Of a stretch of DNA of 50,980 nucleotides, positions 1 to 35,914 are shown in pieces. The translations under genes and the position numbers were made by a program. Location of the stretch: positions 1 through 50,980 of the forward strand of contig QPMI01000313.1 in assembly GCA_004431415.1 (NCBI GenBank), written 5' to 3'. The notes under the pieces are model-generated. The model saw only the letters and a program-made list of their open reading frames with translations, had not been told where the DNA came from and searched no databases. The stretch is from Cyanophora paradoxa CCMP329. Taxonomy: Eukaryota; Plantae; Glaucophyta. Each line of letters begins with the position of its first letter. The stretch's first letter is position 1.

Positions 1-1566
1 AGAAAAAAGAAGAAAGATGCCCCCCAAATCTCTCTGGGGGAATATGCACAAGGTGCTAGCCTTAGGCAGATGACCCACCCACCCACAAGTCACTAAATCA
101 AAAGCCCCAGGTTTCCAATCTGCCAGAAAAAAGAAGAAAGATGCCCCCCAAACCTCTCTGGGGGAATATGCACAAAGCGCTAGCCTTAGGCAGATGACCC
201 ACCCACCCGCAAGTCACTCAGTCAAAGGCCCCAGGTTTCCAATCTGCCAGAAAAAAGAAGAAAGATGCCCCCCAAATCTCTCTGGGGGAATATGCACAAG
301 GTGCTAGCCTTAGGCTGATGACCCACCCACCCACAAGTCACTAATTCAAAAGCCCCAGGTTTCCAATCTGCCAGAAAAAAGAAGAAAGATGCACCCCAAA
401 TCTCTCTGGGGGAATATGCACAAGGCGCTAGCCTTAGGCAGATGACCCACCCACCCGCAAGTCACTCAGTCGGAGGCCCCAGGTTTCCAATCTGCCAGAA
501 AATAGAAGCAAGATGCACCCCAAATTTCTCTGGGGGAATATGCCCAAGGCGCTAGCCTTAGGCAGATGACCCACCCACCAGCAAGTCACTCAGTCGAAGG
601 CCCCAGGTTCAGGATCTGTGACAAAATCAAAGAGAGATGCACCCCAAATCTCTCTGGGGGAATATGCACAAGGCGCTAGCCTTAGGCAGATGACCCACCT
701 AAAAGCAAGTCACTCAGTCAAAGGCCCCAGGTTTCCAATCTGCCAGAAAAAAGAAGAAAGATGCACCCCAAATCTCTCTGGGGGAATATGCACAAGGCGC
801 TAGCCTTAGGCAGATGACCCACCCACCAGCAAGTCACTCAGTCAAAGGCCCCAGGTTTCCAATCTGCCAGAAAAAAGAAGAAAGATGCCCCCCAAATCTC
901 TCTGGGGAATATGCACAAGGCGCTAGCCTTAGGAAGATGACCCACCCACCCACAAGTCACTAATTCAAAAGCCCCAGGTTTCCAATCTGCCAGAAAAAAG
1001 AAGAAAGATGCACCCCAAATCTCTCTGGGGGAATATGCACAAGGCGCTAGCCTTAGGCAGATGACCCACCCACCCGCAAGTCACTCAGTCGAAGGCCCCA
1101 GGTTTCCAATCTGCCAGAAAATAGAAGCAAGATGCACCCCAAATTTCTCTGGGGGAATATGCCCAAGGCGCTAGCCTTAGGCAGATGACCCACCTAAAAG
1201 CAAGTCACTCAATCGAAGGCCCCAGGTTCAGGATCTGTGACAAAATCAAAGAGAGATGCACCCCAAATCTCTCTGGGGGAATATGCACAAGGTGCTAGCC
1301 TTAGGCAGATGACCCACCTAAAAGCAAGTCACTCAGTCAAAGGCCCCAGGTTTCCAATCTGCCAGAAAAAAGAAGAAGGATGCACCCCAAATCTCTCTGG
1401 GGAAATATGCCCAAGGCACTAGCCTTAGGATGATGACCCACCCACCAGCAAGTCACTCAGTCGAAGGCCCCAGGTTCAGGATCTGTGACACAATCAAAGA
1501 AAGATGCACCCCAAATCTCTCTGGGGGAATATGCACAAGGCGCTAGCCTTAGGCAGATGACCCACC
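1..1566 (+). repeat. 124-bp tandem satellite array (left block)
   Basis: Monomer GATGCACCCCAAATCTCTCTGGGGGAATATGCACAAGGCGCTAGCCTTAGGCAGATGACCCACCCACCAGCAAGTCACTCAGTCAAAGGCCCCAGGTTTCCAATCTGCCAGAAAAAAGAAGAAA. GATGC recurs at 16 and 140, giving period 124. Confidence 0.98.
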
Positions 1567-2074
1567 AGCTGAGCTTGGCGCGTTGTCTCCAACAATTAAA
1601 TCCGCGAATTCTTACGATTTACCGTAACAGCATCAAATCTAATCGAAAATCACCGTAAGGCTCAGTGTCACGATCGATTCATCTTCGATTCATCTTCGAT
1701 TCACTCGATTCATCTTCGATTCAATCGATTCAATTCAACTTTTTATGCGCGGCTTCTCCCACGATTCCGCACGATAGACAGTAAGGAGATCTATTGTACA
1801 ATCGATTCCGCAAGATAAGCGGCAATGTACAATAGATCTCGCACGATAAACAGTAACAATTCACCTTTTTTCGCGCGGTGTCTCCCACGATAACAACACG
1901 CTTCAATAAAAATAAATCTTACGTCGGGTTTCGCCCTTCCCCCGTCGTTTTCGGTGCAGCAAATGGTTGCGCAACCATTTTTTTTGGTTGCGCAACCACC
2001 GCAACCAGGTCGCGCAACCACCGCAACCAGGTCGCGCAACCATTTTTTTTGGTTGCGCAACCACCCCGCAACCA
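1567..2074 (+). repeat. Left terminal inverted repeat (508 bp)
   Basis: Reverse complement of 11902-12409; I found 4 substitutions by eye. Confidence 0.97.
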
Positions 2075-2221
2075 ACGCAACCACCCCGCAACCAACGCAA
2101 CCACCCCGCAACCCCCGCTAAACCGTTACAGTCGTGGGTTCATGACTAATGAACGCCGATTGTCTCTTTTTTATCGCTCTTCGTCTCATGAATTTCCTAA
2201 AACCTTTCACGTCATCTTCTG

Positions 2222-2874
2222 TTAAGATCGCGCGATCTGTGTAAGTCTTAATGTCATAACTTGCAAACTTGCGATTACAGTTTGGTAATTATGTCCCCAC
2301 AGGCGATGTAGTTCTTTGTAAGTTTTCTTATCCATTCCACCGTTGTATTCATCGTAAGCACAGTTAAACTCTTTTTCATTTCCTAAAATGTTAAAGAATA
2401 CCACGAATTCCACATTACGACGAATGGTAGTAGAAATAGAACAGATACGTTGGACATTAAAAATAACCGAAATCGAATAATGGCGTCCACTTGTAACCAA
2501 TTTAGATAACACAGCGTTATTATGCATGTCCAGAGTGGAACCTATCATGTCATCAAGAATCAAAACTAAATTGTGGCGTTTCTCGTTGTTCTCGATTCGT
2601 TTTTTTGCATGCTGATCAATCTTAAAACTAAATCATCATTCCATTCCTCGTAAATATTATCGGGATGGGTGATGTCTCTAAATTGACCAGTAAACGCAGT
2701 CGAACTAAAAACTACGATCTGATCGATTTTATCGCGTAGTTCGAAAAGTAAATATTTCGTGAACATTGTCTTACCAGTGTTCGAGCGTCCACAATTTAAG
2801 ATTCGCGTAGGTATTTTAATTGTTCTGTTCGGCTCGAATTCCGGTATATTGTTTAGGTCTACTGTGTTATCCAT
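2222..2874 (-). CDS. A32/FtsK-HerA-family DNA packaging ATPase (frameshifted at T7 run 2600-2606; C-terminus uncertain)
   Basis: Walker A GRSNTGKT, 'IVVFSST', Walker B (LVL)ILDD and A32 motif GRHYSISVIFNVQ. ORFs 2566-2874 and 2222-2563 join as MQKKRIENNEKRHNLVLILDD if one A is added. Confidence 0.92.
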
Positions 2875-2924
2875 TACAGTAATCCCATAAAAAAACGATT
2901 AAGCCAATAACCCACACCAATCGC

Positions 2925-4150
2925 TTAGAAGTTACTTACTTTAAGCGTAGAAATATTATAGCCGTTGAGAACGAGAACGTTGTGGCGAAGTGCGTAAATG
3001 TCAACAACAACAGGTGCAGCATCAGTGCAACCGGAAACTGTGAGATCCATGTAGGAACTCGAAGAATTGAAGAAATCTTGGTAACCCATGACAGAGTTGT
3101 GCAGGGAATCCTTACCGGACTTCGAAAGAACGATCCCGTAAACATTGCCGCCTTGGAATCCGAAGTTTACATTACCAACGGTAGTTCCCTTGTAATGCGA
3201 GGGGATGTGGTTCACAGCCGAAAGGAACCCACTAATCGGTCGGTTCGAGATGTCGAGAGAACGATTATTGTGGAAGATTTGGAACTGATCAATCTTAACA
3301 TTTCCTTCGTAGCCCTCGAAATCTGAATGCGTGTATTTGTTGAGTTTGTTAACTTCGCGCACCGTCATAAGAATGCTGTGAACGAGACCGGAAACATTCG
3401 CAAGCGAAACTTCGACAGATTCGCCCGCATCGGCGGTTTTCTGTGATCGAGTTCGCTTCTGAATCACTTCGGTAATCGGAATGCGAATTCCCCCCTGTTC
3501 GTTCGCCATTTTCAGTAGCGCTTCCGCCTCGGGGGAGGCGATGTTAACGAATTGACAGATCAGGGCGCAGTCGGTCATCGCCAAAGCTCCCCCAGAGGGA
3601 ACCTGAACTACCGCAGCTTCGCGGAAATCAACTTCAATCGTAGGCATATCGGCAAGAACGCAAAGTGGGAAATACGCATCATCCCAGAATTGCGCCGGAA
3701 TTTTAACAACATATTCCCAGGTCTTATCGGTGCTGTTTCGGTTGTTCTCTGAGTAGTAACCCAGCGAAACAAACATGCTCGCCATTGTGGCGTGGTCGTT
3801 ATCGACGAGCGCGTTTACAGTAATCCAATCGCCGGAATGATGTATTTGAACCCACCGTGAACGAAGCGGACTTCGGAAATAAACGACGAACCACCATTGG
3901 GCATTACGCATTGAACGGCGCCACCCGTTGTGACCTTAAAATTGAGACTAACGCCGCTAAGAAGTTGCTTACGCGGTAGATCAAAGTAAGCGGTTGTTTT
4001 GAATCCGAAAGTGTTACCACGAGGGCGGACTTGCTCTAAAAACGGTTTATACTTGGGATTGGTTCCGATTTGAAGACCAGGCGATAAATACACTTGATCC
4101 GAACCGGGAGTCACAAGTAGTTCTTTAAGAGTTGTTCCACTAAGCGCCAT
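2925..4150 (-). CDS. Major capsid protein, double jelly-roll (~408 aa; frameshifted near 3851-3853)
   Basis: The joined frame gives SEVRFVHGG-VQIHHSGDW (cf. the 'ELEIGGQRIDKHYGDW' pattern of DJR MCPs), YFPLCVL..IEVDFR and C-terminal DIYALRHNVLVLNG. Beta-rich, and located between the ATPase and the penton. Confidence 0.8.
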
Positions 4151-4202
4151 TTTCGCTGTTTACAATACAACAAGAAATTTTTAAATTACAATAATAAACA
4201 GA
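4151..4202. promoter_or_regulatory. Putative bidirectional promoter between the MCP and penton genes
   Basis: 52-bp AT-rich spacer between divergent ATGs; TAAACAG lies just upstream of both start codons on their respective strands. Confidence 0.5.
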
Positions 4203-5096
4203 ATGACGCGTTATTATATTAATATTGATTCGAGAGATCGCGAAAATGGAACACCTTCCGAATTTCTCTACAAACTTCCCCATGCAATTCAAAAGGTTAA
4301 AGCATGCAGAGTTACAAATTTCGAAATGTTTAACAATATTTACAACCTTGCAGAGGCAGGATCACTTACCACATCTACCAAAGATGCAGCAGGAAGCACA
4401 AAGAACAGACATAATATTATTGCAAAAGGTTCATACACAACAGACAGTTTAGTGAATTATCTAATTGCTAAGATTGGATCACAGAACTATTCCCAAAGTC
4501 CCAGTGGAACCTATACCAAACACTTCTATGTAACTTATGATCCTATCACAATGTTTTTGAGGTTCATTTGTGAATCTGAATTCAGCATCACTATGGGCAG
4601 TCAGATTCTTGCTAATTTTCTTGGGTTTAAAGATGCAAACAAAGTATACCCCTCAGCACTATTAGATGGGAGTGTTACCATTGGATCATACACATACACA
4701 CACTACATAGACAGTGAAATACCATTAGACCTTCTATTTAATTCCTACTTGCTTCTACACATTGCACAACTAAAAGGCAAGTATGTGAGCAATAACACCA
4801 AAGATAATAATGCTCTTGCTAAAATTGAGATTGACAAGACAGTTGGTAGTTTGCTAATATATGATTCTTCAAATAATGCAATGATCACCCATGAACAGAA
4901 TGGCTTGGTGGAACTTGAAGCAATGGATGTAAGACTTTCTTATTGGAATGGTAACACAGCAGACATCACAACTGATTGGAGTATGACATTAGAAGTTGTG
5001 ACTGAGGATGAGAAGGAACTAACCAAGAGATCACTTCAAAAGGTGATACAAGATTTCGAAGAGGCATTCATTCCATTTTGTAGGTCATATCTGTAA
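4203..5096 (+). CDS. Minor capsid protein (penton, single jelly-roll), 297 aa
   Basis: N-terminal YINIDSRDR...FLYKLP..IQKV and C-terminal LEAMDVRL...DWSMTLEV are typical of PLV/NCLDV pentons. Divergently transcribed from the MCP. Confidence 0.8.
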   Translation: MTRYYINIDSRDRENGTPSEFLYKLPHAIQKVKACRVTNFEMFNNIYNLAEAGSLTTSTKDAAGSTKNRHNIIAKGSYTTDSLVNYLIAKIGSQNYSQSPSGTYTKHFYVTYDPITMFLRFICESEFSITMGSQILANFLGFKDANKVYPSALLDGSVTIGSYTYTHYIDSEIPLDLLFNSYLLLHIAQLKGKYVSNNTKDNNALAKIEIDKTVGSLLIYDSSNNAMITHEQNGLVELEAMDVRLSYWNGNTADITTDWSMTLEVVTEDEKELTKRSLQKVIQDFEEAFIPFCRSYL

Positions 5097-5120
5097 AAAA
5101 TATATCTTTGCATATATCAA

Positions 5121-5879
5121 ATGTCAGGATCCAGGAAAACCCAACCCAAGAATTTCTTGTCGAAACCTGTTGCAGATGCCGATGGGATAACAGAGGGAAA
5201 GAAGGGAAGGAATTGGGACAAGAAACCCAAAGGAACAGCAGCACTTGGAACAGGTGATCTTGACAAGGACATCCACAAAATGATGAATCAGCACACAGCA
5301 ACACCAACTGATAATGCGAACGACGATAACGCTTTGATTGACCAAGTTCCACTGAATCGAATGCCTAAGAAGCGAAAGCATTTCAGAGAGAAGACCAAAG
5401 AGAAACTTTTACCATCCGCCACGCTTTTAAAGCTTCTTGATGGCGGCGAGCGACTTTATTCGACATACTCGGAGAAGGATAACCGCAATCGTTACTTTAT
5501 CCGCTTGAAAACGGGCGGTCTTAAATCGGTCAAATACCAGGACGCCAAAAAAATGGTTCAGGGGATTGCGAACGAGACCGCGTTAGAGAACAAGATTCTC
5601 GAACAGCAGATCACGAAAGAGAAGGTCGAAAAGAAACCGGATGTGACGTTCGACGTTCTTCCCGATCCAATCACAACCGCGAAGAATACGCCAATTGAAT
5701 TAATCGCTAAGACCATCGATTACGCGGAGAGTAACAAGACCGATTTACCGGTAATGAACAAGAGTTTACTTCGGGTCGCCACTTCGCAAGCCGACCCCAT
5801 TACATCGGTTCCCTCCGCCGCCCCCATGCTTTCGGGGTTCGCAAAACTTGGGATCCGCCCCGGTTACCGGAGGTTTTAA
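5121..5879 (+). CDS. Hypothetical Lys-rich protein, 252 aa
   Basis: Long ATG-initiated ORF 24 bp after the penton; NLS-like PKKRKH; no recognisable family. Confidence 0.7.
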   Translation: MSGSRKTQPKNFLSKPVADADGITEGKKGRNWDKKPKGTAALGTGDLDKDIHKMMNQHTATPTDNANDDNALIDQVPLNRMPKKRKHFREKTKEKLLPSATLLKLLDGGERLYSTYSEKDNRNRYFIRLKTGGLKSVKYQDAKKMVQGIANETALENKILEQQITKEKVEKKPDVTFDVLPDPITTAKNTPIELIAKTIDYAESNKTDLPVMNKSLLRVATSQADPITSVPSAAPMLSGFAKLGIRPGYRRF

Positions 5880-6235
5880 AACCGACCTTTGCGTAGCCCG
5901 ACGTTAATGATCATTTTGCCGTTAAAAAATTTCTTGTTCAAATGTAGCGCTACGTAAACAATCCATTCGCGTAGGCTCACGTTTACTCATTTTTATGGGT
6001 GGCGTTGTAGAAAGAAGTGATATCCATGTATATCGCGCTTTTATCACCTGTTCTACGGGGTTCATTCGTGGAAACTTGCGACCGACAAGTAGACAATCGG
6101 GGACACTTCGATTTATTTTCCGGCATCTTCTTTCAAAACGGTGCAAAAAAATGACGGCTTTTCAAGACAAGTATATACCAACAACAAAAAGGACTTAAAG
6201 ATTTCTTGTTATATATCAGAAGAGGACAAAGTACG

Positions 6236-6490
6236 ATGCCGATTAGCGAAGCACAGAAGCGCGCAATTTACCGTTACCGCAAGACCGAAAAGGGTCGTGA
6301 ATATCTTAAAAAGTACAGCAACAGACTGTCGAAACAAATGAAGGAATTATACGACACCGACGAGTGTTACCGAGCGATGAAGATAGTCGATAGTTCACAA
6401 CGCCAGTACGTCGCTAACGCCGTGTGTTACATTAAATACCTTTATGGGGTTCCGCACTCAAATCGGGGGCGCCCCTCGATCTACTTCTGA
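6236..6490 (+). CDS. Small basic hypothetical protein, 84 aa (MPISEAQKRAIYRYRK...), possible DNA-binding regulator
   Basis: ATG at 6236 downstream of an AT-rich motif that also precedes the polymerase gene; basic, probably helical N-terminus. Confidence 0.6.
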   Translation: MPISEAQKRAIYRYRKTEKGREYLKKYSNRLSKQMKELYDTDECYRAMKIVDSSQRQYVANAVCYIKYLYGVPHSNRGRPSIYF

Positions 6491-6725
6491 TCTTGTTTTT
6501 TCTCAGCGCGTTTGCCCTGAGAACCCAGCGCGAGCGCAACCGCGCTTAATCGTAATAAATCTTGTTTGTATTATTTTTAGAACCATTGTATGATGGTCGA
6601 CCCTTTGTTATTTTTCCTATTTGCTTGACCGATCGCTAAAATGCGCCGGTCAAAAAATGACGTCATAGAATAAAATCACTTAAAGAATAAATTTATTTGT
6701 ATAGAATAAGGAAAGCGCCAACAAA

Positions 6726-9700
6726 ATGCCTCGCGCAGTTAGTATCCAATCCGCTAAGAAGAGAGCGAGTATTCTTTCGAAGCTTGGTTATGCTCTTGGA
6801 AATGGGTTTATGAATGAAGAGCAATTTAACGCATTCGGTCACTTTGCCTTCGTCAGACGACCGAGACTAAGCGCACTGAACGACATCGAATACTCAATTG
6901 ATGATATCATTGCGAGAGGTGAGGCTCAGCAAAACACAGAAGACGAAATTAACCGCTTGGGTCGTATTGATGTTCCACAGGAGTTGGTGAATCAGCGACC
7001 AGAGAGAAACACAAAGACACACACGAATCCGTTCAATCGGATGAAAACCGATCTTGGCGAGTTCATTGCGAACTCGCCAGGCGACATGGTCACGCTGCAT
7101 GTTCGACTTTACAAAGAGGTCGCAGAGGACGAAATCGCGAATTTGCCCGCAAACGCTGTTGTGATTCAAGCGAACGGTTTGTATTACCGGGATCTGAAAA
7201 AGACCCGTAGTAATCAACCTCTTGCAATCCAATGTTCGAAAGAAGCGCTGCTTGCAAATCTCGAAAAAATAACGAACACATTCAATTCTTTCCCTGCTCT
7301 AACAACTGTCGAAGACATCCATCAATTCATGTTCGAAATCGTCCGCTTCAATCAGGAAAACCAGGACTTCCGATACTTGACGATTGTTCAAGAGGACATT
7401 TACGGTGAGATCATCACAATTGAACGAATCATCACCACCGACAACCAAACGTATACGCCGAGACAACAGCAAGCGCTACGCGATACGCAACATGCCCCGA
7501 TGATCATATCGAAGTATTTGCGCAATGAGACGAACCCAAAAGCCAAAACTTTGGGGGAACTGTTCATTAGGGGTGATAGATTTAAAGTGGGTCGGTGTGT
7601 TCCGGATGTGCTTGTGATGCATTTCGCACAGGCGTTTCAGAAAGCGCAAGCGAAAGGCAAGTATAAATCGGTCGATTGGACACACAGTGGAATATTTAAA
7701 ATGATTCGGGGTCGGGAACCCACAGAGGGGGACGATTGGGGCTTCACCTTTGAGGAAATCGTAGAAAAGGTTCTGACACCATACCGCATCGGAATGGTCA
7801 CGATCGATAAAGACGATAAGACCGAAATACCCGAACTCACTTTCAAACCGAAAACGAGAAATACACACCTCACGCCATCGGTTGCATACGTGAAAATCGA
7901 AAACGGTCACATGTATCTACTAAACGATAACCTGAAATCACTAACTCACTCTTTCAATGGGTCGAAGTCGAATTCTGACACGAATCTTTCGGTGGGTCGC
8001 GATTCAAGATTGTCAAGCAAAGAAAACATCGCGAATTTGCGGCAACTCCTGAGGATATCGTGAAAATCATCAATTCGGAGGAGATGAAGAACCAGAGCAA
8101 AATTTCGATCTGTTACAGTGGATACCTCGACGATCTTCTGAAAGAGTTCATTGTTGATGTGAATTACCAGGTGCATGCGGGGATTTCCCCAATGCGCAAG
8201 ATCACACACATTCATTTCACGTATGGTGAAAAGAGTATTACGATCACACCACCCGGTTCCGACACAGATGTGGAAACCGCTTACGAAGTGAAATTCAAAG
8301 ACGCAGAGTATCGTGATAAGTTCGAGCGGCTGAATCTGAAAATGTATCTGAGTCTCGTGAACAATGCAAACAAGAGTTCATACAACGATCAGACCATGAC
8401 AGCCTTCCGCCTTGGGTCACAGACCGCCCTTCGTGGGTTCTTCGACTTAGATACCGAAACCCGGGATGACCTCCATTGGAACGAAAACATTTACGAACAC
8501 GATGTGTGCAAGGCATACCCCGCAATCATCGCGAAACAGATCGAATTCGTTCCTGTCGTTAGTAAATTCGATTACTTCAAAAAGACGACTGTAACTTCCG
8601 CGGATCAGATCGAAAACTACAATTTCTATTACGTGAAGTTGCACTCGAAGTTTTTCAAACCAATGAAGAACCCCGACGGATCGACGTATTTTCTTAACAC
8701 GTATGATCGTCACAAGCGCATGCTAATTGATTCGGCTTACAATGTCATTCCGGGAATGGTTCTGAAAAAACACTACGATGCTCTGAAAGACGACATTACC
8801 ATAAAGGGAGTTCTCCGACCATTTAAGTTGGTTCCGAATTTCTCGGGCGATGTGATTCGGCAAATCATGCAAAGTGATCTTGACCCGAACGATAAAAAGC
8901 AAATGCTTGTCGCCAATATCGGACAGATTGGGAAACAGAAAAACCACAAAGTAAAGACCACGATCTTCAACAAGAGAGACGATGCGATCGAATTCCAAAA
9001 GCAATATGGCGGAGAAGTAAAGCTCTACGTGTTTGGTAAAGATCCAACATCGTATGACCCAACTTGTTACGTCATTAGCGAGGAAGAGATTACGGAACCG
9101 TGTATCTACTATGTGAATCAAGTAGCCGAAAGATATCTTACCGATGGGTTCATGCCGTTCCACAACCTGATGTATTCCCTAATGCGCATGAATCTATACG
9201 AGAAGTGCGTAGAACTCAGTGCAAAAGGGATTAATCCTGTTGCTGTGAATACCGATTGCGTCTACACTACCTCGTGCGACCCAATCCCCCTCGTTAGTTT
9301 CGACCGCCACGCCTACGAAAACATCGGGGGTTCAGTGTAAAGCATTGCCCCAATTTCATCAAGAAGTATATCGGCAAAGACAAGGTGCTAAACTTGCGGC
9401 GTATTCACTACGGCAAATTGGAGCGACAGGACGACTTCGTGAAATTAGAGAAGTTGAACTATTTCACTTTCTCAGCAGTTGATGAATTCGACACACCAGC
9501 GATTTGTCTAACTCTTGCGACTCAGAAAAGATGGATTATTCTTGGCGTTGTTCCCGGAGTGGGGAAAACTCACATGATGATGGAGTATTCGAAGCAATTC
9601 CAAAATCCACTTTTCATCGTTCCGACAAACAAGCGCATTCGAGACATGAAGTTGAAAGGCATAAAGAATGTCAAAACTATTTACGATGCGCTCCATCTCA

Positions 9701-10827
9701 AAGTTGACGATTCGAACATGGAAGAGATCGTAGGCGGGAACGCTTCCGGTTTGGCGGACTTTGATGGTATTTTCATTGACGAAATCTGTCAGTTCACAGT
9801 CCCCGAGTTGGGGGCGCTCGCCCACATTATGGGGGTTCTGTTCCCCGACAAGGTCTACGTGGCTACCGGCGACCCCTTTCAGAACCCACCGATACAGGAG
9901 ATGACCGTAAATCAGAAAGAGTATTACGCGTATATTCTTCGGCATCTTTTCGGAAACGAGTTAGTCCTGAAAGTTAACAAGCGCCACAAGACCCAGGAAG
10001 ATCGCGATACAGTCGAGTGTATACGCCGTGATCTTTTCGAAAACGGTTTGAGTGTTCCCGATGTAATTAATAAATACAAGTTTGAGACGGTGAACGCATT
10101 GGGAAAGGATGACCGCGCGATAGTTTACACCAACCGCAAAGCGGCGGAAGTAAATCTACAAATCCACAGGATGAATCACGGGGAAGATGTTCCTATTTAC
10201 GCGAAAGGCGTGGAAATTGTCGCGAAGCAAAGGATCGTGAAGAATGGCGTAACCATTCACAATGGGTTCAGCTACACGATTAAGGCGTTTAACGACACAG
10301 AATTCGTCATCGAGGACATCGCGACGAAGGAGGAAGTGAGGTTAGACCCGCCCGCAATGCGCTATTTCGCGCTCCCTTACGCTTACACTTGTCACGTCAT
10401 TCAGGGTGATACTATTGTGTGCAAGAATGGGAACGTCGTCATTTACGAAGCGGGCGCACCGTTTGTTTCGAGCGAATGGTTTTACACAGCGGTCACACGA
10501 ACTACTGAACTAAATCGGGTCAAAATTTACCATGATGGATTCGAGTGGGCAACACATGTCGTTGACAAGCGCAAGTTCAATGAGCGCATTGAACAGTATA
10601 AGGAACAGGATAAGAAGGCAAACCGACCATTTGACGAAAACGATTATGTGAATTGGGAGTGGTTCAAAAAACGCTACGGAAAACAATATGGTCATTGCCT
10701 TCGTTGCTATGGTGGTATGGATTTCGATCTTAATGTAATCTCGATCGATCGAGTGAATAACGCATTGCCCCATACAACCAAAAATTGTTTCCTGTCTCAT
10801 ATTAGGTGTAACTGTGCTGCTCAGTAA
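6726..10827 (+). CDS. Replication polyprotein: N-terminal/Cys-His protease-like region + protein-primed family B DNA polymerase + SF1 (RecD/Pif1-like) helicase + HNH-like Zn domain (~1367 aa after repairing two frameshifts)
   Basis: PolB-like motifs: A YEHDVCKAYP, B KQMLVANIGQIGK, C AVNTDCVY. SF1 motifs: GVVPGVGKT, VPTNK, IFIDE, GDPFQNPP, NKRH, YAYTCHVIQGDT, YTAVTR. C-terminal CLRC...SIDRVNN..H...NC...H..CN. Frames join at G runs 7994-7996 and 9326-9330. Confidence 0.85.
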
Positions 10828-12185
10828 TGGACAACGTTCTATCTTACAAGAAGTATCGACAGAAACTTATAAACGAAAATGTAACATTTGACGAAAAAGA
10901 ATTGAAAAAGCGATATTTAAATTCCGAAGTGCATCAGATTTTTAAGAAACCCCGAAAACCCACCACATTTTTAAGAATCGTCGCGAAACCGAATTCATTT
11001 CAGGTAGACATTATGTTTTTTAAAGGGTATCAGACAGCAAACAATGGTATTTACAAGATGATCAGTTTCGTTGACATTCTAAGTCGAAAGGCATTCGTGT
11101 ATCCTTTTAAGAACAACGAAGACATTCCGAATATTCTGAATAAATTCAAACAGGAAGCGGGTATGGTTGCTGCACTCTCAGGTGATAATGAATTCAGTAG
11201 CGCGATGTATAGAGATTGGTGTAATGCGAATGGTGTGAGGTTGTATACAGATGTCGCGAAAGAAGAACACATAACCGTAGGAAATAAACTTGGAATCATA
11301 GATAGATTTAAGCGCACTTTTAAACAGTATCTACGCAAGTCGATGACTTCGAAAGGGACAACGAAATGGATAGATATGGTTCCCGAAGTTCTATCGATTT
11401 ATAACAATAGCCCCCATAGTTCCTTAAAGAATGATTCGCCGAACGCCGTGTATGCAAACGTAGATAAACAACTTTTTGTGTATCTACGGGATACTGTTCA
11501 CAACGACAACGTGAAGGCGAATGAAACGAATCCCGTGAAACCGGGCGACACAGTGCGTGTTTTGGAGGGTCGCGTGGGTGCCTTCGACAAAGAGGGCGCC
11601 CGTTTTAGTCAAAAGGTCTACAAAGTGGGAAGGTCGGATGGGAACCGGTTCAAGATTTTAGAAGATAACGACGGAGACGAGAAGGAAGTAAAGCGGCGCT
11701 TTAAGAAGCAAGAATTACAGAAGGTGAATAAGGAAGAGATCATAAAGATCCCGTCGCAAAAGCGCATTGAACGCGTAAAGAAAACGAATAAGGTGAATCG
11801 GTTGGTCGCGAAGGAGGGCGTCAGACCCAATCGAAGTAGGGTCGTGAGGCGTCGGTACAATCTGAGGAGCGGCGTAACGAAGCGGGGGGATCATAAAAAA
11901 ATGGTTGCGGGGTGGTTGCGCAACCAAAAAAAATGGTTGCGCGACCTGGTTGCGGTGGTTGCGCGACCTGGTTGCGGTGGTTGCGCAACCAAAAAAAATG
12001 GTTGCGCAACCATTTGCTGCACCGAAAACGACGGGGGAAGGGCGAAACCCGACGTAAGATTTATTTTTATTGAAGCGTGTTGTTATCGTGGGAGACACCG
12101 CACGAAAAAAGGTGAATTGTTACTGTTTATCGTGCGAGATCTATTGTACATTGCCGCTTATCTTGCGGAATCGATTGTACAATAG
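10827..12185 (+). CDS. Retroviral-like (rve) integrase of Polinton type; true stop probably TAA at 11894-11896
   Basis: FQVDIMF, VDILSRKAFVYP, SGDNEF, GIIDRFKRTFK, YNNSPHSSL..SP and SH3-like PGDTVRV...FDK. Consistent with the 6-bp TSD. Confidence 0.92.
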   Translation: MDNVLSYKKYRQKLINENVTFDEKELKKRYLNSEVHQIFKKPRKPTTFLRIVAKPNSFQVDIMFFKGYQTANNGIYKMISFVDILSRKAFVYPFKNNEDIPNILNKFKQEAGMVAALSGDNEFSSAMYRDWCNANGVRLYTDVAKEEHITVGNKLGIIDRFKRTFKQYLRKSMTSKGTTKWIDMVPEVLSIYNNSPHSSLKNDSPNAVYANVDKQLFVYLRDTVHNDNVKANETNPVKPGDTVRVLEGRVGAFDKEGARFSQKVYKVGRSDGNRFKILEDNDGDEKEVKRRFKKQELQKVNKEEIIKIPSQKRIERVKKTNKVNRLVAKEGVRPNRSRVVRRRYNLRSGVTKRGDHKKMVAGWLRNQKKWLRDLVAVVARPGCGGCATKKNGCATICCTENDGGRAKPDVRFIFIEACCYRGRHRTKKGELLLFIVRDLLYIAAYLAESIVQ

Positions 12186-12409
12186 ATCTCCTTACTGTCT
12201 ATCGTGCGGAATCGTGGGAGAAGCCGCGCATAAAAAGTTGAATTGAATCGATTGAATCGAAGATGAATCGAGTGAATCGAAGATGAATCGAAGATGAATC
12301 GATCGTGACATTGAGCCTTACGGTGATTTTCGATTAGATTCGATGCTGTTACGGTAAATCGTAAGAATTCGCGGATTTAATTGTTGGAGACACCGCGCCA
12401 AGCTCAGCT
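11902..12409 (-). repeat. Right terminal inverted repeat (508 bp)
   Basis: Reverse complement of 1567-2074, followed directly by the TSD CCCACC. Confidence 0.97.
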
Positions 12410-15400
12410 CCCACCCACCCGCAAGTCACTCAGTCAAAGGCCCCAGGTTTCCAATCTGCCAGAAAAAAGAAGAAAGATGCACCCCAAATCTCTCTGGGGG
12501 AATATGCACAAGGCGCTAGCCTAAGGCAGATGACCCACCCACCAGCAAGTCACTCAGTCAAAGGCCCCAGGTTTCCAATCTGCCAGAAAAAAGAAGAAAG
12601 ATGCACCCCAAATCTCTCTGGGGAATATGCACAAGGCGCTAGCCTTAGGCAGATGACCCACCCACCCACAAGTCACTAAATCAAAAGCCCCAGGTTTCCA
12701 ATCTGCCAGAAAAAAGAAGAAAGATGCACCCCAAATCTCTCTGGGGGAATATGCACAAGGCGCTAGCCTTAGGCAGATGACCCACCCACCGCAAGTCACT
12801 CAGTCAAAGGCCCCAGGTTTCCAATCTGCCAGAAAAAAGAAGAAACATGCACCCCAAATCTCTCTGGGGGAATATGCCCAAGGCGCTAGCCTTAGGCAGA
12901 TGACCCACCCACCAGCAAGTCACTCAGTCAAAGGCCCCAGGTTTCCAATCTGCCAGAAAAAAGAAGAAAGACCCCAAATCTCTCTGGGGGAATATGCACA
13001 AGGTGCTAGCCTTAGGAAGATGACCCACCTAAAAGCAAGTCACTCAGTCAAAGGCCCCAGGTTTCCAATCTGCCAGAAAAAAGAAGAAGGATGCACCCCA
13101 AATCTCTCTGGGGAAATATGCCCAAGGCACTAGCCTTAGGATGATGACCCACCCACCAGCAAGTCACTCAGTCGAAGGCCCCAGGTTCAGGATCTGTGAC
13201 AAAATCAAAGAAAGATGCACCCCAAATCTCTCTGGGGGAATATGCACAAGGCGCTAGCCTTAGGCAGATGACCCACCCACCCGCAAGTCACTCAGTCAAA
13301 GGCCCCAGGTTTCCAATCTGCCAGAAAAAAGAAGAAAGATGCACCCCAAATCTCTCTGGGGGAATATGCACAAGGCGCTAGCCTTAGGCAGATGACCCAC
13401 CCACCAGCAAGTCACTCAGTCAAAGGCCCCAGGTTTCCAATCTGCCAGAAAAAAGAAGAAAGATGCACCCCAAATCTCTCTGGGGGAATATGCACAAGGC
13501 GCTAGCCTTAGGCAGATGACCCACCCACCAGCAAGTCACTCAGTCAAAGGCCCCAGGTTTCCAATCTGCCAGAAAAAAGAAGAAAGATGCCCCCCAAATC
13601 TCTCTGGGGGAATATGCACAAGGTGCTAGCCTTAGGCAGATGACCCACCCACCCACAAGTCACTAATTCAAAAGCCCCAGGTTTCCAATCTGCCAGAAAA
13701 AAGAAGAAAGATGCACCCCAAATCTCTCTGGGGGAATATGCACAAGGCGCTAGCCTTAGGCAGATGACCCACCCACCCGCAAGTCACTCAGTCAAAGGCC
13801 CCAGGTTTCCAATCTGCCAGAAAAAAGAAGAAACATGCACCCCAAATCTCTCTGGGGAATATGCCCAAGGCGCTAGCCTTAGGCAGATGACCCACCCACC
13901 AGCAAGTCACTCAGTCAAAGGCCCCAGGTTTCCAATCTGCCAGAAAAAAGAAGAAAGATGCACCCCAAATCTCTCTGGGGGAATATGCACAAGGCGCTAG
14001 CCTTAGGCAGATGACCCACCCACCAGCAAGTCACTCAGTCAAAGGCCCCAGGTTTCCAATCTGCCAGAAAAAAGAAGAAAGATGCACCCCAAATCTCTCT
14101 GTGGGAATATGCCCAAGGCGCTAGCCTTAGGCAGATGACCCACCCACCAGCAAGTCACTCAGTCAAAGGCCCCAGGTTTCCAGAAGAAGAAGAGTATGTA
14201 TAAGACAGGCCCAAGCCGGTTGTGCAAGGTTTCCAATCTGCCAGAAAAAAGAAGAAAGATGCACCCCAAATCTCTCTGGGGGAATATGCACAAGGCGCTA
14301 GCCTTAGGCAGATGACCCACCCACCAGCAAGTCACTCAGTCGAAGGCCCCAGGTTCAGGATCTGTGACAAAATCAAAGAGAGATGCACCCCAAATCTCTC
14401 TGGGGGAATATGCACAAGGTGCTAGCCTTAGGCAGATGACCCACCTAAAAGCAAGTCACTCAGTCAAAGGCCCCAGGTTTCCAATCTGCCAGAAAATAGA
14501 AGAAAGATGCACCCCAAATCTCTCTGGGGGAATATGCACAAGGCGCTAGCCTTAGGCAGATGACCCACCCAAATCTCTCTGGGGGAATATGCACAAGGCG
14601 CTAGCCTTAGGCAGATGACCCACCCACCAGCAAGTCACTCAGTCAAAGGCCCCAGGTTTCCAATCTGCCAGAAAAAAGAAGAAAGATGCACCCCAAATCT
14701 CTCTGTGGGAATATGCCCAAGGCGCTAGCCTTAGACAGATGACCCACCCACCAGCAAGTCACTCAGTCAAAGGCCCCAGGTTTCCAGAAGAAGAAGAGTA
14801 TGTATAAGACAGGCCCAAGCCGGTTGTGCAAGGTTTCCAATCTGCCAGAAAAAAGAAGAAAGATGCACCCCAAATCTCTCTGGGGGAATATGCACAAGGC
14901 GCTAGCCTTAGGCAGATGACCCACCCACCAGCAAGTCACTCAGTCGAAGGCCCCAGGTTCAGGATCTGTGACAAAATCAAAGAGAGATGCACCCCAAATC
15001 TCTCTGGGGGAATATGCACAAGGTGCTAGCCTTAGGCAGATGACCCACCTAAAAGCAAGTCACTCAGTCAAAGGCCCCAGGTTTCCAATCTGCCAGAAAA
15101 AAGAAGAAAGATGCACCCCAAATCTCTCTGGGGAAATATGCACAAGGCGCTAGCCTTAGGCAGATGACCCACCCAAATCTCTCTGGGGGAATATGCACAA
15201 GGCGCTAGCCTTAGGCAGATGACCCACCCACCCGCAAGTCACTCAGTCAAAGGCCCCAGGTTTCCAATCTGCCAGAAAAAAGAAGAAAGATGCACCCCAA
15301 ATCTCTCTGGGGGAATATGCCCAAGGCGCTAGCCTTAGGAAGATGACCCACCCACCAGCAAGTCACTCAGTCGAAGGCCCCAGGTTCAGGATCTGTGACA

Positions 15401-18400
15401 AAATCAAAGAAAGATGCACCCCAAATCTCTCTGGGGGAATATGCACAAGGCGCTAGCCTTAGGCAGATGACCCACCCACCCGCAAGTCACTCAGTCAAAG
15501 GCCCCAGGTTTCCAATCTGCCAGAAAAAAGAAGAAAGATGCACCCCAAATCTCTCTGGGGAATATGCACAAGGCGCTAGCCTTAGGCAGATGACCCACCC
15601 ACCAGCAAGTCACTCAGTCAAAGGCCCCAGGTTTCCAATCTGCCAGAAAAAGAAGAAAGATGCCCCCAAATCTCTCTGGGGGAATATGCACAAGGTGCTA
15701 GCCTTAGGCAGATGACCCACCCACCAGCAAGTCACTCAGTCAAAAGCCCCAGGTTTCCAATCTGCCAGAAAAAAGAAGAAAGATGCACCCCAAATCTCTC
15801 TGGGGGAATATGCACAAGTCACTAGCCTTAGGCAGATGACCCACCCACCCGCAAGTCACTCAGTCAAAGGCCCCAGGTTTCCAATCTGCCAGAAAAAAGA
15901 AGAAAGATGCACCCCAAATCTCTCTGGGGGAATATGCCCAGGGCACTAGCCTTCGGAAGATGACCCACCCACCAGCAAGTCACTCAATCGAAGGCCCCAG
16001 GTTCAGGATCTGTGACAAAATCAAAGAAAGATGCACCCCAAATCTCTCTGGGGGAATATGCACAAGGCGCTAGCCTTAGGCAGATGACCCACCCACCGCA
16101 AGTCACTCAGTCAAAGGCCCCAGGTTTCCAATCTGCCAGAAAAAAGAAGAAAGATGCACCCCAAATCTCTCTGGGGGAATATGCACAAGGCGCTAGCCTT
16201 AGGCAGATGACCCACCCACCAGCAAGTCACTCAGTCAAAGGCCCCAGGTTTCCAATCTGCCAGAAAAAAGAAGAAAGATGCACCCCAAATCTCTCTGGGG
16301 GAATATGCACAAGGTGCTAGCCTTAGGCAGATGACCCACCCACCCACAAGTCACTAATTCAAAAGCCCCAGGTTTCCAATCTGCCAGAAAAAAGAAGAAA
16401 GATGCACCCCAAATCTCTCTGGGGGAATATGCACAAGGCGCTAGCCTTAGGCAGATGACCCACCCACCCGCAAGTCACTCAGTCAAAGGCCCCAGGTTTC
16501 CAATCTGCCAGAAAAAAGAAGAAACATGCACCCCAAATCTCTCTGTGGGAATATGCACAAGGCGCTAGCCTTAGGCAGATGACCCACCCACCCGCAAGTC
16601 ACTCAGTCAAAGGCCCCAGGTTTCCAATCTGCCAGAAAAAAGAAGAAAGATGCACCCCAAATCTCTCTGGGGGAATATGCACAAGGCACTAGACTTAGGC
16701 AGATGACCCTCCCAAATGCAAGTCACTCAGTCCAACGCCCCAGGTTTCCGATCTGCCACAAAAAGAAGAAAGATGCACCCCAAATCTCTCTGGGGGAATA
16801 TGCACAAGGCGCTAGCCTTAGGCAGATGACCCATCCACCAGCAAGTCACTCAGTCAAAGGTCCCAGGTTTCCAATCTGCCAGAAAAAAGAAGAAAGATGC
16901 ACCCCAAATCTCTCTGGGGGAATATGCACAAGGCGCTAGCCTTAGGCAGATGACCCACCCATGTATGGGGGCTTGCCCCTCAGTTGGTGTGTTGGGTGGA
17001 AATACAGTGTGGTGTCCAGGAACTTGTCCTGGTACATCAGCGTGTGAACCCATAGTGTACTACGGGACAAGATGTACCCCAAATCCCTCTGGGGGGATAT
17101 GCACAAGGCGCTAGCCTTAGGCAGATGACCCACCCACCAGCAAGTCACTCAGTCGAGGGCCCCAGGTTTCCGATCTGCCAGAAAAAAGAAGAAAGATGCA
17201 CCCCAAATCTCTCTGGGGGAATATGCACAAGGCGCTAGCCTTAGGCAGATGACCCACCCACCAGCAAGTCACTCAGTCAAAGGCCCCAGGTTTCCAATCT
17301 GCCAGAAAAAAGAAGAAAGATGCCCCCAAATCTCTCTGGGGGAATATGCACAAGGCGCTAGCCTTAGGAAGATGACCCACCCACCCACAAGTCACTAATT
17401 CAAAAGCCCCAGGTTTCCAATCTGCCAGAAAAAAGAAGAAAGATGCACCCCAAATCTCTCTGGGGAATATGCACAAGGCGCTAGCCTTAGGCAGATGACC
17501 CACCCACCACTAAGTCACTCAGTCGAAGGCCCCAGGATAAGGATCTGTGACAAAATAGAAGCAAGATGCACCCCTAACCCTAACCAAAATCTCTCTGGGG
17601 GAATATGCACAAGGCGCTAGCCTTAGGCAGATGACCCACCCATGTATGGGGCTTGCCCCTCAGTTGGTGTGTGGGTGGAAATACAGTGTGGTGTCCAGGA
17701 ACTTGTCCTGGTACATCAGCGTGTGAACCCATAGTGTACTACGGACAAGATGTACCCCAAATCCCTCTGGGGGGATATGCACAAGGCGCTAGCCTTAGGC
17801 AGATGACCCACCCACCAGCAAGTCACTCAGTCAAAGGCCCCAGGTTTCCGATCTGCAACAAAAAGAAGAAAGATGCACCCCAAATCTCTCTGGGGAATAT
17901 GCACAAGGCGCTAGCCTTAGGTAAATGACCCTCCAAAAGCAAGTCACTCAGTCGAAGGCCCCAGGTTTCCGATCTGCAACAAAAAAGAAGAAAGATGCAC
18001 CCCAAATCCCTCTGGGGAATATGCACAGGGCGCTAGCCTTAGGCAGATGACCCTCCCACCAGCAAGTCACTCAGTCGAAGGCCCCAGGTTTCCAATCTGC
18101 CAGAAACTAGAAAAAGGATGCACTTCATATCCCTCTGGAGGAATATGCACAAGGCGCTAGCCTTAGGCAGATGAACCCACCCACCAGGAAGTCACTCAGT
18201 CGAGGGCCCCAGGTTTCCGATCTGCTTGAGAAAAGAAGAAAGATGCACCCCAAATCTCTCTGGGGGAACATGCACAAGGCGCTAGCCTTAGGCAGATGAC
18301 CCACCCACCACCAAGTCACTCAGTCGAAGGCCCCAGGATAAGGATTTGTGACAAAATACAAGCAAGTTGCACCCCTAACCCTAACCCAAAATCTCTCTGG

Positions 18401-21400
18401 GGGAATAAGTTCAAGGCGCTAGCCTTAGGCAGATGACCCACCAACCTGCAAGTCACTCAGTCGAAGGCCCCAGGTTTCCGATCTACCACAAAATCGAAGA
18501 AAGATGCACCCCAAATCCCTCTGGGGGAGTATGCACAAGGCGCTAGCCTTAGGAAGATGACCCACCTAAAAGCAAGTCACTCAGTTGAAGGCCCCAGATG
18601 TCCAATCTGCCAGAAAGAAGAAGAAAGATGCACCCCAAATCTTTCTGGGGGAATATGCACAAGGCGCTAGCTTTAGGCAAATGACCCACCCACCAGCAAG
18701 TCACTCAGTCGAAGGCCCCATATTTCCAATCTGCCAGAAAGAAGAAAAAAGATGCACCCCAAATCTCTCTGGGGGACTATGCACAAGGCGCTTGCTTTAG
18801 GAAGATGACCCAGCCACCTGCAAGTCACTCATTCGAAGGCCCCAGATTTCCAATCTGCCAGAAGAAAGCAGAAAGATGCACCCCAAATCTCTCTGGGGGA
18901 ATATGCACAAGGCGCTAGCCTTAGGAAGATGATCCACCCACCAGCAAGTCACTAATTCGAAGGCCCCAGGTTTCCAATCTGCCAGAAGAAAGAAGAAAGA
19001 TGTTTCCCAAATCTCTCTGGGGGAATATGCACAAGGCGCTAGCCTTAGGCAGATGACCCACCCACCAGCAAGTCACTCAGTCAAAGGCCCCAGGTTTCCA
19101 ATCTGCCAGAAAAAAGAAGAAAGATGCCCCCCAAATCTCTCTGGGGGAATATGCACAAGGCGCTAGCCTTAGGAAGATGACCCACCCACCCACAAGTCAC
19201 TAATTCAAAAGCCCCAGGTTTCCAATCTGCCAGAAAAAAGAAGAAAGATGCACCCCAAATCTCTCTGGGGGAATATGCACAAGGCGCTAGCCTTAGGCAG
19301 ATGACCCACCCACCACTAAGTCACTCAGTCGAAGGCCCCAGGATAAGGATCTGTGACAAAATAGAAGCAAGATGCACCCCTAACCCTAACCCAAAATCTC
19401 TCTGGGGGAATATGCACAAGGCGCTAGCCTTAGGCAGATGACCCACCCATGTATGGGGGCTTGCCCCTCAGTTGGTGTGTTGGGTGGAAATACAGTGTGG
19501 TGTCCAGGAACTTGTCCTGGTACATCAGCGTGTGAACCCATAGTGTACTACGGGACAAGATGTACCCCAAATCCCTCTGGGGGGATATGCACAAGGCGCT
19601 AGCCTTAGGCAGATGACCCACCCACCAGCAAGTCACTCAGTCAAAGGCCCCAGGTTTCCGATCTGCAACAAAAAAGAAGAAAGATGCACCCCAAATCTCT
19701 CTGGGGGAATATGCACAAGGCGCTAGCCTTAGGTAGATGACCCTCCCAAAAGCAAGTCACTCAGTCGAAGGCCCCAGGTTTCCGATCTGCAACAAAAAAG
19801 AAGAAAGATGCACCCCAAATCCCTCTGGGGGAATATGCACAGGGCGCTAGCCTTAGGCAGATGACCCTCCCACCAGCAAGTCACTCAGTCGAAGGCCCCA
19901 GGTTTCCAATCTGCCAGAAACTAGAAAAAGGATGCACTTCATATCCCTCTGGAGGAATATGCACAAGGCGCTAGCCTTAGGCAGATGAACCCACCCACCA
20001 GGAAGTCACTCAGTCGAGGGCCCCAGGTTTCCGATCTGCTTGAGAAAAGAAGAAAGATGCACCCCAAATCTCTCTGGGGGAACATGCACAAGGCGCTAGC
20101 CTTAGGCAGATGACCCACCCACCACCAAGTCACTCAGTCGAAGGCCCCAGGATAAGGATTTGTGACAAAATACAAGCAAGTTGCACCCCTAACCCTAACC
20201 CAAAATCTCTCTGGGGAATAAGTTCAAGGCGCTAGCCTTAGGCAGATGACCCACCAACCTGCAAGTCACTCAGTCGAAGGCCCCAGGTTTCCGATCTACC
20301 ACAAAATCGAAGAAAGATGCACCCCAAATCCCTCTGGGGAGTATGCACAAGGCGCTAGCCTTAGGAAGATGACCCACCTAAAAGCAAGTCACTCAGTTGA
20401 AGGCCCCAGATGTCCAATCTGCCAGAAAGAAGAAGAAAGATGCACCCCAAATCTTTCTGGGGAATATGCACAAGGCGCTAGCTTTAGGCAAATGACCCAC
20501 CCACCAGCAAGTCACTCAGTCGAAGGCCCCATATTTCCAATCTGCCAGAAAGAAGAAAAAGATGCACCCCAAATCTCTCTGGGGGACTATGCACAAGGCG
20601 CTTGCTTTAGGAAGATGACCCAGCCACCTGCAAGTCACTCATTCGAAGGCCCCAGATTTCCAATCTGCCAGAAGAAAGCAGAAAGATGCACCCCAAATCT
20701 CTCTGGGGGAATATGCACAAGGCGCTAGCCTTAGGAAGATGATCCACCCACCAGCAAGTCACTAATTCGAAGGCCCCAGGTTTCCAATCTGCCAGAAGAA
20801 AGAAGAAAGATGTTTCCCAAATCTCTCTGGGGGAATATGCACAAGGCGCTAGCCTTAGGAAGATGACCCACCCACCCACAAGTCACTAATTCAAAAGCCC
20901 CAGGTTTCCAATCTGCCAGAAAAAAGAAGAAAGATGCACCCCAAATCTCTCTGGGGGAATATGCACAAGGCGCTAGCCTTAGGAAGATGATCCACCCACC
21001 AGCAAGTCACTAATTCGAAGGCCCCAGGTTTCCAATCTGCCAGAAGAAAGAAGAAAGATGTTTCCCAAATCTCTCTGGGGGAATATGCACAAGGCGCTAG
21101 CCTTAGGCAGATGACCCTCCCAAAAGCAAGACACTCAGTCAAAGGCCCCAGGTTTCCGATCTGCCACAAAATAGAAGAAAGATGCACCCCAAATCTCTTT
21201 GGGGGAATATGCACAAGGCGCTTGCCTTACACAGATGACCCACCCACCAGCAAGTCACTCAGTCATAGGCCCCAGGTTTCCAATCTGCCAGAAAATAGAA
21301 AAAGGATGCACTTCAAATCTCTTTGGAGGAATATGCACAAGGCGCTAGCGTTAGGCAGATGACCCACCCACCAGCAAGTCACTCAATCGAAGGCCCCATA

Positions 21401-22129
21401 TTTCCAATCTGCCAGAAAGAAGAAAAATGCACCCCAAATCTCTCTGGGGGAATATGCACAAGGCGCTAGCCTTAGGCAGATGACCCAGCCACCTGCAAGT
21501 CACTCATTCGAAGGCCCCATATTTCCAATCTGCCAGAAAGAAGAAGAAAGATGCACCCCAAATCTCTCTGGGGGACTATGCACAAGGCGCTTGCTTTAGG
21601 AAGATGACCCAGCCACCTGCAAGTCACTCATTCGAAGGCCCCAGATTTCCAATCTGCCAGAAGAAAGAAGAAAGATGCACCCCAAATCTCTCTGGGGGAA
21701 TATGCACAAGGCGCTAGCCTTAGGAAGATGACCCAGCCACCTGCAAGTCACTCATTCGAAGGCCCCAGATTTCCAATCTGCCAGAAGAAAGAAGAAAGAT
21801 GTTTCCCAAATCTCTCTGGGGGAATATGCACAAGGCGCTAGCCTTAGGAAGATTACCCACCCACCAGCAAGTCACTCAGTCAGAGGCCCCAGGTTTCTGA
21901 TCTGTGACAAAAAAAAGCAAGATGCACCCCGAATCTCTCTGGGGGAAGATGCACAAGGCGCTAGCCTTAGGAAGATGACCCACCCACCAGCAAGTCACTC
22001 AGTTGAATGCAGTAGGTTTTTGATCCGCCACAAAATAGAAGAAGGATACACCCCAAATCTCTCTGGGGGAATATGCACAAGGTGCTAGCCTTAGGCAGAT
22101 GACCCACCCACCAGCAAGTCACCAGCAAG
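12410..22129 (+). repeat. 124-bp satellite array (middle block) with higher-order repeats and small insertions
   Basis: Same monomer as the left block; divergence rises toward 22 kb. Confidence 0.98.
14183..14226 (-). mobile_element. 44-bp insertion with 9-bp TSD (second copy at 14787-14830); possible 5'-truncated non-LTR retroelement end
   Basis: AGGTTTCCA is duplicated at 14174-14182 and 14227-14235; on the minus strand the insert ends in TTC repeats. Confidence 0.55.
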
Positions 22130-23076: not shown

Positions 23077-23233
23077 AAAAAAGAGTGCGTGTGCACCCAA
23101 TTTGGACTCAATTTGGGAGGCCCGTTGCAGAATTGGTTTTTGAACTGAGCACCTTGGAAAAAAACTGGATATGCTCGGAATTCACGACCCTCTACACATG
23201 CTCTGAGATTGTTGATTAGACATCCTACCAACC

Positions 23234-26689: not shown

Positions 26690-27030
26690 ATGGCCGACGA
26701 TATCGCAACTAATCTTATGATCAAAATCTTGACTACTGACGACAAGAAAAAGTTTTCGGGCACCAATGCCGACTATGCATTTTCTAGTTTTCACACACAA
26801 GTGCAGGGCATTTTCGATCTTGGAATTTTAAATAACACGCAGAAATATACGGCGCTCATGTGCTTAACGTCGGAAGCGGCCCACGAACTCGTTAGAGATG
26901 CCGGGCCGCTACCGCAGCAGGTTCCGCCAGACTTTTTCAATAATATTTTCACAAAGCTGAAGGACCGTTTCGATCGCACTCATTTTGACTATCGTGATTC
27001 GTTTAGGGCCTTGCGTTTGGAATTCATAAA
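26690..27030 (+). pseudogene. Family B gag N-terminus (truncated by deletion/inversion)
   Basis: MADDIATNLMIKILTTDDKKKFSG...QKYTALMCLTSEAA...KLKDRF, located downstream of the PBS. Confidence 0.75.
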
Positions 27031-27476
27031 GGAGTGGGAAATGTCAATCATATTCTTTTCACAATAATCTCTTCCAAGAATCACATCGTGGGAAAGCTTA
27101 TCCATCACCACCACTCGTTCAACTGTCTGCAAACTTCCTAGTTCTATTCTCAAATTTGTTGATCCAACAGCAGGGACCATTTCTTTTGTAAAACCTCGAA
27201 GCTTGGGTGCAGCTTTTACAACTTCAGGCTGCACTGGCAACTTGTTTAGCAATTTTTGTGAGGCCAAAGAAACGTCTGCTCCTGTGTCCAATAAGGCGCA
27301 GGTGGGAACTTCCTGTACCTTTACAGGTACTGTCCCTGCCCGGCCCTGCTCATGGACAGTTGGCTTTAGTGCTAGAATTTCCTTGGGGGTAAAGACTATT
27401 TTGGACGTGGTGTACACAATGCGATCCTTTATATTTTCATCATGCTGCACATCATAATCCTGAACTGCTTTATCTC
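27031..27476 (-). pseudogene. Inverted aspartic protease segment of family B
   Basis: Minus-strand ALLDTGA...DVILGRD; nearly identical to plus-strand 34286-34730. Confidence 0.9.
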
Positions 27477-27503
27477 CATTCCAAAGGGATTGTACACTCC
27501 TTT

Positions 27504-35906: not shown

Positions 35907-35914
35907 GTATATTC

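Follow-up and report, generated by a model that had tools for sequence, protein, structure and literature searches.

A patch of 1056 nt that has lost almost all of its CpG dinucleotides lies within an otherwise CpG-rich endogenous Polinton-like virus in the window, by which we mean the whole stretch of 50,980 nt of DNA that was analysed. The composition of the patch supports its reading as a methylation scar, left by the decay of CG to TG or CA on viral-type DNA. As to its origin, we consider it probable, though far from assured, that the patch is a penton module which homologous recombination brought in from a sister lineage with a long history of methylation by the host, in which case it would be a scar of ancestry rather than a regulatory device. 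The coordinates of the features are given in Table 1.

Table 1. Features of the Polinton-like virus and of its CpG-poor patch (window coordinates; o/e, observed/expected).
Feature	Coordinates	Strand	Remarks
Whole endogenous Polinton-like virus	1567..12409	.	10,843 bp; ends AG...CT; CpG o/e ~1.5 outside the patch
Target-site duplication (TSD), 6 bp	left 1561..1566, right 12410-12415	+ (left)	inside a 124-bp satellite array
Left terminal inverted repeat (TIR)	1567..2074	+	508 nt; 4 differences from the right TIR, 2 of them CpG transitions
A32-like packaging ATPase	2222..2874	-	two ORFs; Pox_A32 E=1e-4 and 3e-3, below the Pfam cut-off
Likely major capsid protein (MCP) gene	2925..4150	-	two ORFs, 3815-4150 and 2925-3911; frame break near 3830; CpG-rich
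Divergent MCP/penton gap, likely promoter	4151..4202	.	52 nt; AT-rich; outside the patch
Penton (minor capsid protein) gene	4203..5096	+	297 aa, intact; codons 20-297 in the patch
CpG desert (the patch)	4261..5316	.	4 CG per 1056 nt; TpG/CpA excess
Intergenic gap	5097..5120	+	within the patch; putative diverged promoter-like motif
Basic 252-aa ORF	5121..5879	+	no Pfam match; codons 1-65 in the patch, remainder CpG-rich
Likely PolB-like/SF1 helicase replicase	6726..10827	+	three ORFs; UvrD_C_2 E=0.009 for 9574-10827
rve-type integrase	10827..12185	+	rve E=0.0095; ORF extends into the right TIR
Right TIR	11902..12409	-	

The integrase, the 508-nt TIRs, the 6-bp TSD and the AG...CT ends are all present in the element. 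It adds a new member to the Polinton-like viruses, and searches of protein, viral and metagenome collections yielded no close relative of it. The integrase had 108 homologs, the best of them 34–42% identical and many of them carrying PF00665, and the two adjacent ATPase ORFs matched successive parts of Pox_A32, each just below the cut-off. The ORFs at 2925–4150, which by their position and sequence motifs would encode the MCP, gave no match in Pfam, the PDB or protein databases, and their single-sequence model reached a pLDDT of 33. Presumably the ORF at 8084–9340 carries PolB-like motifs and the ORF next to it encodes an SF1 helicase; the Pfam and database searches with the polymerase ORFs returned no match to PolB. 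A cysteine maturation protease had no Pfam match among the 11 ORFs of the element, where a divergent one could escape detection. Each of the genes for ATPase, MCP and replicase is interrupted in the window. The MCP frame break near 3830 was absent from the contigs of the four sequencing runs compared below, so that some of the breaks may have arisen in assembly or occur in this copy alone. Both TIRs are built from short internal repeats (11/20-nt and 22/65-nt units; 1674–2113, mirrored at 11863–12302), and these repeat regions are rich in CpG (o/e 1.4–2.3). A 6-bp TSD is described as typical of rve elements in the available part of PMC12220804. As far as the Polinton-like viruses and Polisuviricotina with a polB-SF1 helicase replicase and an rve integrase are described in the available part of bioRxiv 10.64898/2026.06.19.733378, our element resembles them in its TIRs, 6-bp TSD, rve integrase, A32-like ATPase, penton and SF1 helicase, and alike in both are many copies in a eukaryotic genome and frequent modular exchange. 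It differs in being smaller (10.8 kb vs. the 15–20 kb given there for Maverick-Polintons) and in having no recognised protease, methyltransferase or Tet-like gene.

The gene at 4203–5096 was confirmed as the penton by its predicted structure. Its protein had 15 homologs at E ≤ 1e-3, five of which matched DUF5901, and was modelled with a pLDDT of 85. The top Foldseek match of the model was the mavirus penton (E=4.5e-8); it also matched a protein of Tetraselmis virus S1 (E=4.6e-14), and its best PDB matches were the pentons of mavirus, PBCV-1, Sputnik and adenovirus. In the gap between the MCP and penton genes, an A-tract/TTTCTTGT motif lies on the minus strand at 4170–4182. Further copies occur at 5098–5118, 5150–5162, 5924–5937, 6197–6210 and 6554–6566; the motif precedes several viral ORFs, one copy falls within the ORF at 5121, and the copy in the intergenic gap of the patch is the most diverged. 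The motif is likely a viral promoter element.

The sequence-only reading had described a sharp CpG desert of about 1 kb in an otherwise CpG-rich viral genome, beginning inside the penton gene and ending inside the next one. Direct counting reproduced its figures exactly: CG occurs in the patch at 4322, 5057, 5161 and 5180, is absent from the 733 nt of 4324–5056, and occurs seven times in 5461–5520. The CpG o/e was 0.11 in the patch and 0.00 in its core, compared with 1.50 and 1.47 in the left and right flanks within the element, while TpG (1.41) and CpA (1.52) were raised over a value of ~0.94 outside. Change-points located independently by maximum likelihood fell at 4261 and 5316, with 2-lnL support intervals of 4243–4329 and 5290–5316, respectively. 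At the flank o/e, the patch's own C and G would give 55 CG (Poisson P 6e-19), and at an o/e of 1 they would give 37 (P 7e-12). The deficit persisted with the amino acids held fixed: resampling codons with flank usage gave 59.7±5.6 CG and shuffling the patch's own codons gave 15.7±2.7, and in neither case did any of 5000 draws reach as few as 4. Even the poorest 300-nt window of the element outside the patch still held 11 CG. The sharpness of the desert stood in part, in that a step was the best-fitting edge shape but logistic edges up to ~440 nt wide came within 2.6 lnL of it; widths of at least 660 nt fitted worse by at least 6.9 lnL. Both ends proved to lie in coding sequence as described, since the patch spans 94% of the penton gene (codons 20–297), the 24-nt gap and 65 codons of the following ORF. 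The first 65 codons of that ORF contain 2 CG in 196 nt, where ~14 would be expected at the flank rate, whereas penton codons 1–20 contain 6 CG in 58 nt; the CpG-poor stretch thus reaches the next ORF and spares the CG-rich start of the penton gene, so that the codon bias of a single gene, as the earlier reading had argued, does not account for it. Three of the four surviving CG (4322, 5057 and 5161) stand within TCGA, a context with an 11% share in the flanks, but four sites are too few for interpretation.

To characterise the patch further, we compared it with a decay simulation in which 94% of the CG in 133 overlapping flank segments was converted to TG or CA. The results showed that the decayed flanks closely resembled the patch in GC content (0.377 vs. 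0.375) and in all 10 dinucleotide odds (|z| ≤ 2.0). The trinucleotide chi2 of the patch was 48 against the decayed flanks and 252 against the raw flanks, and the former value falls inside the range of 27–82 obtained when each of 8 flank blocks was left out in turn. The largest trinucleotide residual was CTA/TAG (26 vs. 15; z 2.9 among 32 classes), and codon choices without CpG involvement differed between patch and flanks in one of 22 tests. The loss of CpG was offset by the gain of TpG and CpA and by a matching drop in GC, as expected of 5mC deamination. Because the composition of the patch matches that of decayed flanks, its source is viral-type DNA and neither host DNA nor AT-rich foreign DNA; blastn found no match to the patch elsewhere in the 50,980-nt window. 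CpG decay is also evident in the surrounding host DNA: two copies of a retrotransposon pol region differed by transitions at 6 of 188 CpG sites and at 6 of 2450 other sites, a ~13-fold raised rate, and the CG columns of the satellite monomers are polymorphic with TG and CA. The methylation origin proposed for the CpG loss is therefore backed by the simulation, the trinucleotide fit and the host CpG transitions.

The TpG and CpA values bear on a further possibility, namely that CpG was removed by selection, either in a cis element that avoids host silencing next to the capsid promoter, as the earlier reading had proposed, or in escape from a CpG-sensing RNA factor. Both dinucleotides are over-represented on a single strand, which is what deamination acting symmetrically on DNA would produce, and the MCP/penton gap that would hold the promoter lies outside the patch, with CG retained on either side of it (4145, 4154, 4207 and 4209). 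This position and the mutational signature leave the silencing-avoidance element poorly supported. The adjoining major capsid gene, moreover, is CpG-rich, and a CpG-sensing factor is not known for the host. In favour of selection, the absence of CG over 733 nt exceeds the depletion of the host retrotransposons (o/e 0.66–0.74), and the CpG suppression of the human cytomegalovirus (HCMV) IE1 gene is interpreted as evasion of ZAP in the available part of PMC7911179. Taken together, we regard selection against CpG as very unlikely.

Whether the penton gene was under selection while it was losing CpG received modest and mixed support from its codons. Four measures favoured a synonymous route (lnLR +1.6, +2.2, +0.5 and +3.9) and two further measures favoured neutral decay (lnLR −2.5 and −3.1); under neutral decay the 342 codons remained free of stops in 666 of 3000 trials. 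The absence of CGN among 8 Arg codons (P 5e-6) was dropped as proof of long selection, because CGN codons also vanish by neutral decay and the 8 AGR codons fall between the neutral and the selection models.

The element was then followed in public sequencing data. Its words were present at 79–88% in 20 of the 24 listed runs, which come from 17 studies of one organism, and four of these 20 runs were compared over 3300–6300, where each covered 30 of 30 bins. Near-identical contigs covered the patch in all four runs, with no single listed piece spanning the whole of it, and a contig of 309–525 nt with 0–3 differences crossed the left border in each. The patch is thus no assembly artefact, and this copy is not alone in carrying it. 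The insertion itself is young, as its TIRs are 0.8% apart and its TSD is intact; combined with the presence of the patch in all four runs, this indicates that the CpG loss predates the insertion and belongs to the subfamily. Decay of a single copy after insertion, an assembly chimera, capture of host DNA or a codon or amino-acid bias might be suggested by the position of this copy in CpG-poor satellite and by its several frame breaks, but each listed near-identical contig departs from the window by only 0–3 differences, the penton fold is intact and the codon-controlled nulls never reached the observed count, so that we give these explanations hardly any credence. Contig depth to the right of the patch was 1.5–1.9 times that inside it in three of the four runs and equal in the fourth, depth not being equivalent to copy number.

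Related families are present in the host at ~80–85% identity, one of them at severalfold the contig depth of this subfamily, and they appear from their loose ends to be poorer in CpG than the backbone of the element. The 24 loose-end rows listed out of 134 represent 12 distinct places; at the 10 outside the patch, the relatives had 8–9 CG by eye, compared with 20 in the window over the same 230 nt. At the two inside the patch, a deep sibling family had no CG in 60 nt (~2 expected, P ~0.1), a hint that the desert may be shared with relatives. With no more than 81% identity inside the patch, this family is not the donor. Among the 40 differences listed out of 231, two of the 28 outside the patch remove a CG and one of the 12 inside creates a CG in a sibling. 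At 3477, one run has a CpG transition as its predominant allele. Searches for the donor or for a CpG-rich parent allele were negative in the protein, viral-contig and metagenome collections, and the 32 pieces listed out of 480 included no copy that is identical in the flanks and different in the patch. Protein searches gave no close relative among 703 penton and 829 MCP candidates, nor did locus scans that used penton, MCP and helicase on viral contigs and penton on metagenomes. A degenerate pattern for the start of the penton found 5 viral loci, of which 3 were penton-like and none was related by blastp, as well as 17 metagenomic loci without a penton-like one among them; a stricter pattern found no viral locus.

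Under the recombination model that we favour, integrated viral copies would be methylated by the host, and lineages persisting mainly as integrated copies would in consequence be depleted of CpG, with their reading frames kept open by selection. A first crossover may have occurred at about codon 20, just past the conserved start motif of the penton, and a second at about codon 65 of the next ORF, which would have brought the penton of a CpG-poor lineage into a CpG-rich backbone; the recombinant would then have spread as a young subfamily before CpG was regained. This model accords with the location of both borders in coding sequence, the left one immediately after a motif shared with relatives at 80–85%, and with the CpG-poorer relatives found outside the patch in the same runs. 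Outside the patch the element has undergone no net CpG loss, though integrated copies seem CpG-mutable there too: methylation seems not to be confined to the patch, as two of the four TIR differences and site 3477 are CpG transitions. Mosaicism, both at the genome level and within genes, is reported for Polinton-like viruses in the available parts of bioRxiv 10.64898/2026.10.13.758929 and 10.64898/2026.06.19.733378. The first of these, as far as its available part goes, documents replicase swaps and finds the pairing of MCP and penton stable at the family level, which speaks against the exchange of a penton module. Further points against the model are that no donor or parent allele was found, that the patch has no foreign signature apart from CpG, that graded edges are allowed by the fit, that the sibling loose ends inside the patch hold no CG, and that the measures of selection during the loss are mixed.

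Several of these points suit instead a lasting, position-specific methylation of the penton transcription unit by the host, gene-body-like or small-RNA-guided and sparing the first 60 nt, by which CpG would have been removed in place and kept low. The patch is flank-type DNA plus CpG decay; it runs like a transcript body from 58 nt past the penton ATG to 220 nt past the stop; and the siblings' 0 CG in 60 nt inside it, compared with 8–9 in 230 nt outside, together with the graded edges allowed, would fit decay in place. Gene-confined CpG suppression also has a precedent in cytomegalovirus IE1, according to the available part of PMC7911179. However, such targeting must spare the other 9.8 kb, yet the TIR and MCP-region variants include CpG transitions; its right border would lie midway in the next ORF; and one of the 12 listed patch differences creates a CG in a sibling. 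Nor do three distant viral minor-capsid genes, drawn from the five pattern loci of which three were penton-like, show a comparable desert: their o/e values are 1.02, 1.12 and 0.53, compared with 1.03, 1.03 and 0.92 in their flanks, which argues against a general penton desert. We consider local methylation unlikely, if a serious contender. Slightly less likely still is its strict form, in which the host methylates the penton unit alone in an otherwise unmethylated integrating lineage and the same desert recurs in several diverged families. Of the two origins that the earlier reading had derived from methylation, the recombined module is thus favoured, and the evidence does not separate them decisively. 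Both readings are directly testable in the 20 public runs that carry most of the element's words.

On CpG suppression of betaherpesvirus immediate-early genes, the review PMC7911179 cites Honess 1989 and Lin 2020. Its available part presents HCMV IE1 as gene-confined suppression of this kind, and the patch resembles it in being one gene-sized CpG-suppressed region in a DNA virus genome that is otherwise unsuppressed. The IE1 region coincides, by that account, with a class of regulatory genes throughout a virus subfamily and is linked to latency or ZAP, whereas the patch covers a structural gene, has both borders inside ORFs and is seen in one subfamily. Methylated endogenous viruses are described in the available parts of PMC11244446 (adintoviruses and GEVEs of Amoebidium) and bioRxiv 10.64898/2026.10.09.758095 (a punuivirus of Chlamydomonas); in both systems the host places 5mC on integrated DNA viruses, and the state varies by copy and region. 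Those studies measured methylation, and their available text describes neither gene-confined CpG loss at the sequence level nor exchange between methylated and unmethylated lineages. For Halocafeteria, the available part of the report states that host methylation of integrated DNA viruses was not found. Among the openly accessible papers that the literature searches listed, none reports such a local desert of CpG for a Polinton-like virus. If the recombination model is true, CpG content would be a built-in label of lineage, old methylated endogenous copies could supply a functional capsid gene to a lineage that is rich in CpG and was active recently, and module swaps could be mapped from single genomes with no donor in hand. 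If local methylation is true, the patch would point to a host that methylates a latent Polinton-like virus in a gene-specific manner, and the strict form would make it a counterpart of herpesvirus immediate-early CpG suppression that marks a gene handled differently in latency.

The virus was inserted within one monomer of a satellite. Satellite arrays occupy 1–1566, 12410–22122 and 38619–50980, with a 124-bp unit (121-bp on the right), higher-order periods and a CpG o/e of 0.13–0.3, and their orientation switches near 22125; the setting may be centromere-like. Nested and partly tandem-duplicated Ty3/Gypsy-type retrotransposons (protease, RT, RNase H and integrase; CpG o/e ~0.7) fill 25097–38491, with repeated gag-protease blocks. 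Between satellite and retrotransposons, beside a (TG)34 repeat, one or more gene fragments resembling glycosyltransferase family 11 (E=2e-4) lie at 23216–24442.
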